Source: a virus (lineage: Duplodnaviria > Heunggongvirae > Uroviricota > Caudoviricetes). Taken from it: DNA of 64,000 nt. Shown here piece after piece: positions 36,001 through 42,000 of this stretch. The stretch lies in IMG/VR virus record IMGVR_UViG_2703718861_000013. One strand, written 5' to 3'. Position 1 is the first letter of the stretch. Each line of letters opens with the position of its first letter. A program made the position numbers.

Positions 36001-39000
36001 CGCCAGTAAATCCGTCCAGTACCACGCCAGTAAAGCTGGTTCATGATTACGGACCCTAAACTATCACTATAGGGAGACCAGCCTCCGCCTCTGAGTCTGA
36101 TGCGTCAGAACATGCGAGCATCTGGTCAACCGACATTAAGTATCTCTCCTAAGTAATCAAGGCATGTGACCGCCTCTGTCAGACCTCGTGTATCGACCTC
36201 CAGCTCGTTAGCGTTCTCGTGTCTTCATTATGATTTGGGTCTATCACCGCTCACCATCTGGAAGTCCTTACAGCTCGTCCTGACATGCGGTCTCACCTTT
36301 ATATGGCTGGAAGAGACCTCCTCTGTCAGACGCTATCTAACCAACCCAGAAAACGGGTTTGTTAAAAAGATTAACATGGGTCTCCACCTTCATGAGGACC
36401 GCTCCGGAAATTTCCGGACCGTGAACGGGTGGCTCTATCACAGGTCGCGAAAATGGAAACCTGCTTAACGTCCCCAAAACTGAGCAGTCACCATTCTTAA
36501 CGGGTCCAAATTTGGGCGCGTTGGCGAGAAGTCTAACCAACCCAGAAAACGGGTTTGTTAAAAAAGTTAACATGGTCTTCACACGACCTCATTACCTCAA
36601 GTCTTTCTGTATGTCTCCTGTTGCCTGTGAGTCTCCCTATCGTTGGGGGCTTGAGTAGGCTTTCAGGGTGTGACTTCAGGAGGCATAACAAAAGGAGTAC
36701 AACGATATGTCAACTCAACCCTTAATGAAGCATGAAGTAGTTCTTCCTGTCATCGTTGACGGCTATCACTGGGCCTGTAATCAGGACCGTATGTGGAACC
36801 TGAACGAGCTACATAAAGAGCTTGAGCTTCCATCTGCTAAGGAGCCGGGTCAGTGGCGTTCTAGCGTCAGGACGCTTCTTGACCAAGATGCAAATCTGCA
36901 TGTTGCTCATGGTGGTTCGACTCCGGGGACATGGGCTACTGAAGAGGCGGCTATTGCCTATGCGATGTGGGTCTCACCTGATTTCTACCTTAAGGTCATC
37001 CGTGCTTTCATCGCTTTACGTAACGACAAAGTGTCGGAAGCTAAGGCGCTGGCGCAGGACTCCAAGGAACTTAAGGGTCTCAAGCCTATAGCCCGTAACT
37101 GGCTGGAAAAGCTGGATAACCCGAAGCAGGGCCACACCCTGACAGAGTGTCTTAAGAATCTCGACTTCAGGTTAGGTACAAAGCTGGTATCAGCCAAGGC
37201 TCTTAATGCCGTATTGAAGTCAGGGCGTATAGCTAATCCCTTCTATAGTCGCAAGCTGGACGGTCGAGGACAGCCTGTATTTGACATCTCGTCAGGTGGC
37301 TGGATGACCAGCTTCAATCCTAAGGGTCTGGAGAACGGCTATTACCGTCTTCAGGATAACCACTATAACGGTCAGGAGGGGCTTAAGGTCCTCACCAAGG
37401 GTTACGAGTGGCTTAAGTCCAACAAGGTCGAGCTGGTTCGTCTGTGCGCTAAGGGAGGACTCTAAGATGATTGACCCGCGCACACCTGAGGGCCGCATGA
37501 CTCTCCGTTACCGTGGCTACCGGACTGAAGTCCTCCTCAGAGAGCTTGGTCTAGACCCGGAAGATGAGACCCGCCAGCACCAATCCCGAGACGAGCTGAT
37601 AGCGCAACTGGTCGCTATGAAACTGTCTGCCTAATTTTAAAACCTTTTGAGATGACCGATGCGGGGAGACCCGTAGGCGCTACTGCGTCTGCGATACCGA
37701 TAGTCTCAACTCTCAAGAGGAGAATTACCTATGATGTTCAACAACAACAACTGGAAGCTGTCAGTCACCGACATCAACCTTTATGAAAACACTGTGAGTC
37801 TGGACGGTCAATCCTATCCGTTGTCGCTCGCTATCAAGACCCTGATTCCGGGCTACCTGTCAGGACTGCCGTCTACCAGCCGTGAGTCTATGGAGTTACT
37901 GGAAGCTCTGGCTGAAGCTGGTGTAGCTATTGGCAACTTCTTCAGTAATGACCTGATGACCGCCTATGGTCGCCGCCAGCAGAACAAGCGAGCTGAGGCT
38001 GAGCGTATCGCTAAAGAGCAGCGCATTCAGGCCGAGCGCATGCGTGAAGAGAACATGACTGATGCAGAGTGGCAGAAAGAGCTACAGCGCCGCGAACAGG
38101 TCAAAGCTGAACGCCGGACCTATGGTGAGAACCTCCGCAGTGCTACCCATTCCGCTGGTCGCTCCCGTGCCGCTATTGTCGCTGACCTTGAGTCAGGCGG
38201 TAACTGGCTGGACAGCTTATAAGACACACAGTCCCTGACCCGATGTTAGGGACTCCTCAGTTTTGAGGACTCACAGTATTTAAACTAATTTAGGAGATTG
38301 ATTATTATGACGATTAAAGACGCTTTCCAGTTTGGCATTGAGCCAGTACGCATCACCGATACCGACAACATTCAGGTCAATGAAGGTCTGCCGACTAACG
38401 CTGACCCGCAGGTCTACGCCCTCCAGTTAGCTAAGACGGTTAAGGCTATGCTGAACGGTGTACTTAAGGACGCTCAAGAGAACATCCCGTTCCCTGTAGA
38501 AGTCCTGCCGACCCGTAACAGCTTACCGACCCCAATCATTGCCCACACTCTGACTGACCGCTCTGTGGTCGTTCCTGTCCGTGGTGGCAAGCGACCTGAA
38601 GTCGTGACCGTTCCGTCTGGACAAGAAATCGTGGTCGAACCAATCGAGCAGGCTATTCTCATCTCTGAGCAGACCAAGCTCTGGGACGCCAAGTCATCCA
38701 CCGGATTCACTCAGGGCACACTTCAGCAGGACGCTATGAACATCTGTGAGAATGTGGTCCGTACCATCAACGCTCGCATGGTCGACGTTCTGGAATCCTC
38801 TAAGCTGCTGAAGACCGTAGAGCTTCCTGTCCTGACTGGTAGCCTGACCGCTAAGGCAGACGCTATCATGGACGCTCTGTATGAGAACACAGAGTCTTCT
38901 TTCGGTTCTGAGGTGTCTGACTACGGTATTATCGCTCATGAGAGCCAACTGAAAGCACTGTCCCGTCTGGCTGCTAAGCAAGGCTTCTCCGGTGAAGACG

Positions 39001-42000
39001 CTATCGTCGATATGCTGGGAACAGACATCGCCTACTACAACGGTGAAGACAAGGGTGTATTCATGCTGGCTAAACGCTTCACGGCTCTGAGCTTCGGTTG
39101 CTTCCGTCACGATGGCGAGAATATTACGGTCGTCCTTTCACGTGATGGCGACTCTCAGTCCCACGACTTGGAAATCCTCGGTAAAGTGTTCGTTGTCGCT
39201 GAAGCTGCTACGACCATCAAGATGGGCACTGGCTCAGCTACTGCCGTCCTGCCTGTAGTCAAACGCCTGAAGTTCACCAAGACCGAAGCGTAAGACCAAT
39301 GGGTAAGAGCATTAGTAAAGGCTTCAGGTCCATCGCCAAGGGCCTGACAGGTGGTGGTGGGACTCAAGGTGGGGCTTCGGTCCCGCCTCCTGTAGCTCCT
39401 CCTGTAGCTCCTCCAGATGACGCTCAGCAAGCTGTAGTCGATACCCAAGGTCAGGAGACCGAGGGAGGTAAGACCATGAGCAGAGGTAAGTCTGGACTGA
39501 ATATCAGCAGGACTTCAGGTGGTGGCCTGTCACTGTGATTAAGACATCTATACAGCCTGTGGAGGGTGGACGATATCAAGCAACAATCTGGATGACACGC
39601 AGAGTCTATAAGCGGCTATGCTGGTCACTGGCTGAAGCTGAACAGTGGGTGAGACGTAAAGTGCCTACCGTTCAATCGTTCCAATCATCATGATAACTAT
39701 GGTCTGGACCAATGGTCTGGACCTTTGTTTTGTACTAGTTATCTAGTGCAGTAGTACAATAGACGAAGGAGGCTTTATGTCTATGACTTCCGCAGACCTA
39801 AGGTCCCTCCTGACTCTGGTCTATAAACTCGTGTTCCTCTCTGTGGGTCTCTATATGGTCCTCTCCGGTCGACTCGGTGTGAATGTATTCGACACTCTGT
39901 CTAAGGCTGTGGGTGGGCTTCTGGGGGCTTAGGTTTGGACTCACAGTGGGACCGATGGTTTCTGACAGAAAAATGTGAATGACCATCTAATACATTAAGC
40001 CAGCAGACTTCCCCCATAGCCCGCCTCAAGTCCAGACCGAGGCCACCGGGGGGCTGACCAGCCGTCTAGACATCCCGTCTAATGACACAAGGCTGACACA
40101 AAGCCTGACACAAAGTCCTTGACTCAATGCAGGACCTCAGGCCTACTAAGGGTCCGCTTCAAGTCCTTGAAGTTCCAGATGAACTTAATGGGCACATCCA
40201 GTTTATCTTTGCCGCGGACGCCGTCGCGGATTGCCGTCATTTGCGGACCATGATCGATAGCATCTGTCCAGCTGAAGCAGGAGATTGACATTTTGACCGG
40301 ATTATCCAGCACCGGCAGGCGTTCTATGGTAATGGTATAGGTCGATTCACGCGCGCCACTATTTCCGCCGCTGATGCCGACATTGCCCGTCAAAATAGGT
40401 AACATAGCAATAGCGCGTGCAGTCAGTTCGCCGTTTGCCTGGCGTTGCGGCCCCCAGCCCTGGCAGATATAAGCGGGTTTTGCTGTGCCAATTTCACGCG
40501 CCAGTTTGATGATACGGTCTACCGGGATACCGGTAATTTGCGAAGCCCACTGCGGCGTTTTCGCTGTGTTATCATCACCTTCACCAAGAATATAGGCTTT
40601 ATAGTGACTATTTTTGGGTGCATCTGCGGGTAAGGTTTTTTCGTCATAGCCGACGCAGTATTTATCGAGAAAAGGTTGATCAACGAGATTTTCGTTAATC
40701 AATACCCAGGCAATACCCGCAACCAGCGCGGCATCGGTGCCCGGGCGAATAGGGAGCCATTCATCTTCACGACCAGCAGCCGTATCGGTATATCGCGGAT
40801 CGATAGCAATCATTTTGGCGTTCGATTTCTCGCGCGCTTTTTCAAGAAGATAAGTGATGCCACCGCCGCTCATGCGGGTTTCTGCCGGGTTGTTACCAAA
40901 CATCACGACCAGCTTGCTGTTTTCAATATCCGTGGTGCTGTTGCCATCATTACTGCCGTAGGTGTAGGGCATGGCACAGGAAATTTGCGCGGTGCTGTAG
41001 GAGCCATACTGATTGAGTGAACCGCCGTAGCAGTTCATCAGGCGTTTGACCGCCGAGGCTGATGGCGAAGAGCGGGTCATATTGCCGCCAACGATCCCCG
41101 AAGAGTACTGAATATATACAGCCTCATTGCCATATTGTTCGACGGTTTTCTTCAGGCTACTGGCGATAGTATCCAGGGCTTCATCCCAGCTAATCCGTTC
41201 GAATTTGCCTTCGCCGCGTTTGCCCACGCGTTTCATTGGGTAATTCAAGCGATCGGGATGATTAATACGCCGACGGATGGATCGACCACGCAAACAGGCG
41301 CGTACTTGATGATTGCCATACTCGTCGCTGCCGGTGTTGTCAGTTTCCACCCAGGTGACTTCATTATCTTTAACATGTAGACGAAGTGCACAGCGGCTAC
41401 CACAGTTGACGGAACAGGCACCCCAGATCACTTTTTCGCTGGCCTGTTGTACCGCTGCCGCTGCACTGCGCAGGGTGAACGGTAAAGAAAAACCGCCTGC
41501 AGCCAGCGCCAGAGAACCTATCGCGGTTGATTTAACGAGTGTTCTGCGGCTGATGCCCACCATTCGGTCATTTTTGGACATAACTCACTCCCTGTTCTTT
41601 ATCGTTATATAAATGTTTATATATTGAATATTTAGCGCGCTAACAATAGAGGGAGTCTACCCATTTTGGGTTAAGAATTATTAATCCATATCAATAGAAG
41701 GGTATGAGTAATAAGGTGGGATTATGTTGTATGTTCAAATCGCCGGATGTGTCGTATCCGGCGTTCAGTCGATAATGTATTACTGCGGTTCGGCAGGCGC
41801 GCCATCCTGGGTAGACTGCGCGGGAGCAGAGACGTTACCGCTGGTGGTGCGGGTATAGAGAATTTTATGCGTATCATTAGCGCAATGGCCGACGACCTGG
41901 GAATCAGGCTGATCAACCTGGTCATTGGGTACAATACTTAACGTGAAGCTGCTTTCGGGTACGCCATTATTGATAATGCGCTGTGATATATCGCTCTGTA

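Follow-up and report, generated by a model that had tools for sequence, protein, structure and literature searches.

Why would a 6563-bp integrative island in an Escherichia coli chromosome encode what appears to be a virus capsid protein? The question is raised by three tightly packed genes at positions 37731-39538 of a 64,000-nucleotide (nt) stretch of IMG/VR record IMGVR_UViG_2703718861_000013, the whole of which is here called the window. The original prediction, made by reading the DNA, described a scaffold-like protein, a capsid-sized protein and a small Gly/Pro-rich protein, possibly a module by which a satellite builds or remodels small capsids. Our analysis leads to a reading that we hold with slightly more belief than doubt: the genes would form the virion-morphogenesis part of an integrative satellite of T7-like phages that builds its own capsid. 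The three open reading frames (ORFs), of 163, 328 and 79 amino acids (aa), were recovered as described:

37731..38222, plus strand: 163-aa protein (MMFNNNNWKL...), encoded directly 5′ of the capsid gene
38307..39293, plus strand: 328-aa protein of major-capsid type with a predicted HK97 fold (ATG start, MTIKDAF...)
39299..39538, plus strand: 79-aa homolog of the T7 protein gp7.3, as judged by alignment; an accessory gene of this sub-lineage

Are these genuine genes? The good Shine-Dalgarno sequences that had been credited to all three are clear for the 163-aa gene (GAGGAG, 7 nt before 37731) and the 328-aa gene (TAGGAG, 10 nt before 38307) but not for the 79-aa ORF, which starts 5 nt past the 328-aa stop codon and, on both grounds, is possibly translated by coupling. 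A TTG at 38298 would lengthen the 328-aa protein to 331 aa; its homologs begin at the ATG (328 aa). Both of the larger ORFs are judged to be real genes under purifying selection, because, in comparisons with diverged homologs, the 163-aa gene has a ratio of nonsynonymous to synonymous substitution rates (dN/dS) of 0.10-0.27 and the 328-aa gene one of 0.10-0.21. The 79-aa ORF could be compared only with the 99%-identical copy at the related locus L009, which gives a dN/dS of 0.18 at a divergence too small to be informative.

The 328-aa protein has no match in Pfam, PHROGs, NCBIfam or the PDB sequences, neither it nor the core of 37 relatives matches a curated capsid family (Pfam, PHROG, NCBIfam), and a tblastn search of 50,697 phage records returned nothing. 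Close homologs (at least 70% identity) are confined to Enterobacteriaceae. A profile search of 1.84 billion representative proteins yielded 66 family members, the distant ones 21-42% identical and 330-527 aa long, some of them with C-terminal Big_2 or Ig-like extensions. C-terminal Ig-like extensions are, as a general statement, common in surface-exposed virion proteins, and the Big_2 or Ig-like domains of these distant relatives would be typical of such a protein. With 12 close homologs AlphaFold2 gave an unusable model (predicted local distance difference test, pLDDT, 47.8); a confident model needed the distant homologs from the hidden Markov model search of the 1.84 billion proteins, and with the resulting 37-sequence alignment the pLDDT was 83.4 and the predicted template modeling score (pTM) 0.77. 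In this model the elements follow one another as in the HK97 fold (N-arm helix, long hairpin, 28-residue spine helix, A-domain, P-domain strands), and all the parts by which the fold is recognized are in place, namely the N-arm, the E-loop hairpin, the long spine helix with its P-domain sheet and the A-domain; an N-terminal delta domain is absent. Foldseek returned 237 PDB matches at E ≤ 1e-3, the top ones all being capsid proteins (phi29, T5, Kp9, HRP29, PhiM1) or encapsulins, together with 220 viral matches in BFVD, where the named ones are nearly all capsid or head proteins. As modeled, the 328-aa protein almost certainly adopts the HK97 fold. A non-capsid fold had been named at the outset as grounds for giving up the capsid assignment; the fold returned by AlphaFold2 and Foldseek is that of a capsid protein.

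Some homologs carry the PGAP label “peptidase M16 family protein”, for which neither Pfam nor NCBIfam gave any support. The label sits on the feature under the capsid-gene match, apparently the capsid-gene homolog itself, in some E. coli RefSeq records (H6, H16, H28, H34 and others), and is probably an annotation error that masks the nature of the gene. In a Logan contig (P0023), an in-frame fusion joins the N-terminus of the KilA-N protein to the last two-thirds of the capsid protein; the fusion implies a deletion of ~1.4 kb that includes the 163-aa gene, and the copy is probably decayed.

To which lineage does this capsid protein belong? The phage of helper type used for comparison is phiYIO1-1, a 40.5-kb K1F-like T7-type Escherichia phage with an endosialidase tailspike. 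Compared with its capsid protein, gp10, the 328-aa protein gives a blastp E above 0.5 and, at the level of the capsid family, an hhalign probability of 0.2%. Each of the seven related capsid-gene loci that were examined is a small island or a short contig; an integrase accompanies six, and at none of the seven was there a portal or terminase gene or a phage-genome setting. From these comparisons, the protein represents a capsid-type lineage found so far only in small integrase islands. Contigs of 6.4-7.3 kb that carry the capsid gene were considered as free or encapsidated copies and proved to be ordinary chromosomal fragments.

What might the 163-aa protein contribute? It consists of an N-terminal globular part of ~75 aa, a charged helix (residues 76-135, with 15 K+R and 12 D+E, the highly charged stretch noticed at first reading) and a C-terminal tail ending in NWLDSL. 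Homologs with 21-65% identity lie directly 5′ of the capsid gene at loci L003, L005, L007, L010, L011, L015 and L016, and more remote counterparts (13% identity) occur at L012 and L013; the family always keeps its place directly 5′ of that gene, at capsid-protein identities to the 328-aa protein of 24-94%. Members are widespread in E. coli, Shigella, Salmonella, Enterobacter, Citrobacter, Yersinia, Kluyvera and Photorhabdus, where every annotation calls them hypothetical. Among solved structures the family profile finds one, PDB 5eur_A (“Uncharacterized protein”, 136 aa), with an E-value of 1e-18; three members match Pfam DUF6971 weakly, several database homologs carry PF22318, and tblastn of the 163-aa protein against phages found nothing. 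Since the gene position is conserved, the architecture elongated and helical and the C-terminal tail conserved, a separate scaffolding or assembly protein is a plausible assignment. The term “scaffold” of the original prediction is thereby upheld as far as synteny and architecture go, but not by any likeness to T7 proteins in profile comparison. Against gp9 of phiYIO1-1, hhalign gives a probability of 0.09%, with no similarity to the T7-type scaffold. An identity with T7 gp14 was also considered and rejected: the matches are weak (Pfam E 0.013, 15.8 bits against a cut-off of 27; blastp E 0.009; hhalign probability 0.9%), lie in the charged helix and are probably compositional.

The gene order recalls gp9-gp10 of T7, in that a small, helical, charged protein precedes an HK97-fold capsid protein with a T7-class promoter upstream. 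Unlike in T7, neither island protein is detectably homologous to its counterpart, and the 163-aa partner is half the size of gp9 and not strongly acidic (isoelectric point 5.6).

The 79-aa protein has the Gly-rich ends and the PPPVAPPVAPP stretch first described for it, yet the suggestion that it belongs to the capsid has to be replaced. PHROG 1320 (“host range and adsorption protein”) matches residues 1-79 with an E-value of 1.8e-11; Pfam VirionAssem_T7 (PF11653) matches at E 0.006 and 17.6 bits, under its gathering score of 25. Over its full length the protein is 38% identical to gp33 of phiYIO1-1, a “virion assembly protein” (E 2.6e-13 in a 51-protein database), and the two have in common the N-terminus (M/V)GKSISK and the C-terminus SRTSGGG(L/I)S(L/I). 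The similarity thus spans the whole protein, including the C-terminal nozzle-binding segment by which the gp7.3 family is recognized, and on these alignments the 79-aa protein is a homolog of the T7 tail-channel protein gp7.3. A tblastn search against phages found nothing, for which its low-complexity filter may be the cause (the direct blastp was unfiltered). In the T7 virion, six copies of gp7.3 sit at the junction of adaptor and nozzle, with the C-terminal loop anchored on the nozzle protein gp12 and lysines touching the DNA end, and gp7.3 is required for the assembly of infective particles (PMC11784390). The island protein resembles it in its full-length match, its MGKSISK N-terminus and its SRTSGGG motif at the C-terminus; it differs in being encoded by a chromosomal island, in its Pro-rich insert and in being 38% identical to the nearest phage copy tested. 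The gene is present in the closest relatives (L009), is missing 3′ of the capsid gene in L003, L007, L010, L016, L005 and L011, and in most E. coli copies of the module the DNA similarity ends with the capsid gene.

What ties the island to T7-like phages? Three non-coding elements bear on this:

36056..36077, plus strand: T7-class phage-RNA-polymerase promoter CTAAACTATCACTATAGGGAGA, predicted +1 at 36072
35627..35648, plus strand: variant T7-class promoter CTTGATTATCACTATAGGGGAA, upstream of the 122-aa ORF
39952..40044, plus strand: non-coding segment resembling a concatemer junction or terminal repeat, from its alignment to phiYIO1-1

The first promoter is identical to the capsid-gene promoter of phiYIO1-1 at 25 of 25 nt (36056-36080) and fits the consensus CTAAACTATCACTATAGGRA of that phage's nine promoters, which read CTAAACTATCACTATAGG. 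It has what defines the class: a length of ~23 nt, the core TCACTATAGGGAGA from −8 to +6 and a phage-specific segment from −12 to −9 that corresponds to one in a real phage. The operon that it is predicted to drive runs rightward and is made up of the KilA-N gene, the 55-aa ORF, the 163-aa, 328-aa and 79-aa genes and the 52-aa ORF. At the variant promoter, a 59-nt stretch aligns with the capsid-gene promoter region of phiYIO1-1 at 73% identity. The core TCACTATAGGG occurs in exact form exactly twice in the window, both times in the island and on the plus strand. Related islands carry T7-class promoters of other specificities: ACACTATAGGGAGAGA in L003 (K11/SP6-like), four copies of TTCCTACCACTATAGGGAGA in L011 and the T3-like AAACCCTCACTCTAAGGAGA in L005. 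Adaptation of each lineage to a helper of its own would lead one to expect such differences. Sigma-70 promoter and terminator sites are no more numerous in scans of the island than in shuffled sequence.

Past the strong promoter, a 630-nt untranslated stretch contains a 44-nt direct repeat (36336-36379 and 36532-36575, 95% identical); in each copy a small hairpin and a run rich in A and T precede GGGTC or TGGTC, which are pentamers recognized by T7 primase. The combination of promoter and repeats is reminiscent of the T7 primary origin, which comprises a promoter and an AT-rich region.

The segment at 39952-40044 aligns with phiYIO1-1 from −33 to +61 around the left genome end, with a Smith-Waterman score of 23 against 10.3 ± 1.3 for shuffled sequences, none of 300 shuffles reaching 23. 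In this alignment the phage end, ACCACA followed by TCTCACAGTTCAAG, is paired with island GACCA followed by TCTAATACATTAAG near 39987. The best blastn matches in a 2.3-Gb phage collection (E 1e-3 to 4e-3) are to Enterobacter and Escherichia phages of 39-40 kb, and weaker ones include Dickeya phages; where a phage record begins at the genome end, the matches fall in the end regions. The segment is a candidate packaging and end-formation site.

A further element, at 35344-35380, is a hairpin-forming sequence of 28-32 nt (GGGAGGGTGATAATAATCATAATCCCTCC...) common to 144 phage records, mostly of 39-40-kb T7-like phages of Escherichia, Salmonella, Klebsiella and Citrobacter, with 96-100% identity among the matches listed. 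Where a record begins with the genome end, the element is found in unannotated DNA, ~450-600 bp before the right end; phiYIO1-1 has it on the other strand. A signal for processing or packaging is a possible role.

From its promoters and end-like DNA the island very probably depends on T7-like phages, the closest match of helper type appearing to be K1F-like (Kayfunavirus-type). The satellite context that had been proposed is thus borne out by the helper-type promoters, the gp7.3 homolog and the mimic of a concatemer junction.

The window derives from an E. coli chromosome in which the minus-strand gene ynfE is interrupted by the insertion. The remaining features of the island and its edges are:

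32592-~33617 and ~40172-41581, minus strand: parts of ynfE, split by the island
33609..33617: attL core GTTCCAGAT, inside ynfE at the left island edge, a 9-nt direct repeat
33684..35267, plus strand: tyrosine integrase (Pfam Phage_integrase E 1.8e-13; PHROG 1 E 3e-42)
36707..37465, plus strand: KilA-N domain protein, opening gene of the operon
39701..39733, plus strand: terminator-like hairpin and T-run after the 52-aa ORF, by consensus match only, such sites not exceeding shuffles
39777-39932, plus strand: 51-aa ORF of single-pass membrane type, the final island gene, before the junction-like DNA
40172..40180: attR core GTTCCAGAT, at the right island edge, a 9-nt direct repeat

The 6563 bp are measured between the two 9-nt repeats, and the plus-strand order is integrase, 122-aa ORF (downstream of the variant promoter), KilA-N, 55-aa ORF (between the KilA-N and 163-aa genes), 163-aa, 328-aa, 79-aa, 52-aa and 51-aa ORFs. 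Scanned against Pfam and PHROG, these nine ORFs include no portal, terminase, core, tail, polymerase or primase gene; the only proteins identified are integrase, KilA-N and gp7.3-like. Rfam and tRNA scans of the island were empty. The KilA-N protein is a probable regulator, its slot being taken by Rha or Bro-N proteins in island variants, and the hairpin with its T-run is the probable end of the operon.

Two copies of TGACACAA near attL (33776-33794) and three near attR (40083-40113), including a 20-nt exact direct repeat, are probably arm-type binding sites of the integrase. The left copies lie within the long integrase ORF, and the true start codon is therefore probably further downstream. 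The distantly related island L005 has TGTCACCAG-type repeats near both ends in a similar layout. The 51-aa membrane-type protein is kept in L003 (82%) and L009 (94%), and other relatives encode a hydrophobic peptide of 26-30 aa there. T7-like phages end with a comparable gene, the small hydrophobic gp19.5-like one, which corresponds to the 51-aa gene in size and location but is not similar to it in sequence.

How widespread is the module? The two-gene core of 163-aa and 328-aa genes occurs in 310 of 5426 complete E. coli genomes (~6%). In 298 of these 310, the module from 37731 to ~39280 is covered to at least 80%, as against 25 for the whole island; further hosts are Salmonella, Enterobacter, Citrobacter, Shigella and other Enterobacteriaceae. 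Comparison of the copies identifies the pair as the conserved core of a mosaic island family, which varies in its regulator (KilA-N, Rha, Bro-N), its accessory genes (HNH, ParE-like, T7 gp0.4-like) and its insertion site. The compact gene set and the size recur (6.56 kb here, 6.7 kb between the repeats of L005) with capsid proteins that are only ~24% identical.

Two relatives illustrate this variation. L016 (NZ_CP027338.1, 2981796-2995332) lies at another site, beside the ETT2 type III secretion remnant, where genes for an integrase, a DUF4145 protein and a Rha regulator and an inserted IS66 precede the same gene pair, here of 169 and 329 aa; the family therefore uses several integration sites and regulators. 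The more distant L011 (1193-11749), whose capsid protein has a C-terminal Ig-like extension, has genes matching Phage_T7_GP04, ParE_like and HNH_3, from which it follows that satellites of the family carry variable cargo, possibly for anti-phage or host-takeover functions.

How might such an element build a particle? We infer that the RNA polymerase of an infecting T7-like phage would read both island promoters, the one at 36056-36077 being the stronger and transcribing the operon from the KilA-N gene to the 52-aa ORF. The 328-aa capsid protein and the 163-aa protein, the latter most likely an internal scaffold or assembly chaperone, would assemble a satellite-specific shell, and this shell would form around the portal of the helper, because genes for a portal, terminase, core or tail are absent from the island. 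The helper terminase would fill the shell with island DNA, recognized through the junction-like segment, and the gp7.3 homolog would dock on the helper nozzle by its C-terminal SRTSGGGLSL, helping to join the tail and to retain the DNA end. As to the size of the capsid, volume scaling from T7 suggests that a T=3 shell would hold ~11 kb, a T=4 shell ~17 kb and a T=7 shell ~40 kb, corresponding to 1.7, 2.6 and 6.1 copies of the island.

Several points weigh against a satellite that builds its own capsid. The capsid protein is unrelated in sequence to that of the helper, so that it may not be compatible with a T7-type portal and core, and the internal core of T7 (gp14-16) is large and may be too big for a small shell. 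No known scaffold resembles the 163-aa protein detectably, and the sole solved relative of the latter, 5eur, is uncharacterized. This structure may be the trimeric SF216 of Shigella, in which case a decoration protein would fit the 163-aa protein as well as a scaffold does. The gp7.3 homolog is missing from most relatives and is therefore not essential to the life cycle of the family. Finally, six copies of the island amount to 39.4 kb, about one helper genome (the T7-like helper genomes compared measure 39-40.5 kb), and six times the 6715-bp repeat spacing of L005 (248-7004) amounts to 40.3 kb; the island length may thus be tuned for packaging as hexameric concatemers, and concatemers in full-size heads, with no need of small capsids, are a live alternative.

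This arithmetic also favors an explanation in terms of interference or defense, which we consider unlikely. The capsid-like protein and its partner would form decoy shells or poison subunits that sequester the portal, scaffold or terminase of the helper, the gp7.3 copy would act as a dominant-negative plug, and any transfer would take place in ordinary helper heads containing about six copies. Plasmids with a T7 origin and a concatemer junction, a case attributed to Chung and Hinkle in 1990, are reportedly packaged as phage-length concatemers. Packaging of concatemers by satellites that have no capsid genes is described for PICMIs (PMC10803314). That phage promoters appear to be the only drivers of the module, which would then be expressed during infection only, also suits a defensive role. 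However, a full HK97 fold with a partner gene, both kept under purifying selection in very divergent islands, exceeds what a poison subunit needs, and the Ig-like C-terminal domains of some family members suggest display on released particles.

Could the 328-aa protein instead redirect the capsid of the helper? The Ccm protein of SaPIbov5 acts in this way together with the capsid protein of its helper. By analogy, the 328-aa protein would co-assemble with helper gp10, for example at pentons or selected hexon positions, and alter the curvature so that small capsids form, a possibility that we rate as improbable as the preceding one. Unlike Ccm, it has no detectable similarity to the capsid protein of the candidate helper, which makes mixed lattices less likely, and it is paired with a conserved partner gene of its own, as expected of a self-sufficient shell-forming pair. 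More generally, the homologies to the helper that mark redirection of the SaPI type (CpmB to scaffold or Ccm to capsid) were absent in the comparison with phiYIO1-1, a provisional result in that the natural helper may differ.

Is the island simply what is left of a temperate T7-like prophage, in decay and without present function? Integrase-bearing Autographiviridae exist, and the promoters and end sequences are common to the island and to T7-like phages. Yet the island ORFs are intact and the two larger ones of the module are under purifying selection, a compact gene set and a size like those of the island recur in lineages with ~24% identical capsid proteins, the capsid protein is unrelated in sequence to those of the T7 type and the module is present in 310 E. 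coli genomes as well as many other Enterobacteriaceae; a remnant is accordingly very hard to credit. Equally remote is an encapsulin-like nanocompartment, a portal-less shell of the 328-aa protein with the 163-aa protein as cargo held by its C-terminal tail and no role in DNA packaging, since encapsulins go with an enzymatic cargo bearing a targeting peptide and with no phage context, whereas the 163-aa protein has no enzyme domain and the island appears to be phage-dependent.

How does a capsid-building satellite of this kind compare with known ones? The cf-PICIs (e.g., EcCI2) have a full head and packaging set (capsid, protease/scaffold, portal, connectors and small terminase) and take tails from temperate siphophages (10.1101/2022.09.08.507074). 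Unlike these, the island has no portal, protease, connector or terminase gene among its nine scanned ORFs, and it is wired to T7-like phages by phage-polymerase promoters; it works like a capsid-forming satellite but falls outside the cf-PICI definition by gene content. With PICMI/VEIME elements it has in common that it is a small integrase island (~6-7 kb) of virulent phages, with a length near an integral fraction of the helper genome. PICMIs are defined (PMC10803314) as packaging concatemers without capsid-remodeling genes; the island, in contrast, carries a capsid gene pair and T7-class promoters, and despite the fit in size and integrase it falls outside that class. P4-like elements are set apart by Sid, Psu and Delta and by alpha primase-helicase domains, none of which was found in the island ORFs. 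The literature searched, which is incomplete in coverage, describes neither a satellite of T7-like phages nor this gene family.

We give an even chance to the broader proposal that the island belongs to the first recognized satellite family of T7-like phages (Autographiviridae), silent until switched on by the helper polymerase, building its own capsid on the helper portal with two genes (a satellite-specific HK97 capsid protein and a DUF6971-like partner), packaged by mimicry of the concatemer junction and equipped in this lineage with its own gp7.3, its relatives in other Enterobacteriaceae and beyond being tuned by their differing promoter specificities to other T7-like helpers. If this is true, a capsid protein and one partner gene would make it the most minimal capsid-forming satellite known so far, a foreign HK97 shell could be built on a T7-type portal and core, and the island would offer a natural case in which the RNA polymerase of a phage is the sole gate to gene expression. 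Few virulent phages have been studied as well or used as widely as T7 and its relatives, which serve in phage therapy, display and expression systems. The presence of the module in ~6% of complete E. coli genomes, as well as in Salmonella, Enterobacter, Citrobacter and Shigella, could then sway the outcome of therapy with T7-like phages and add a route of gene transfer.

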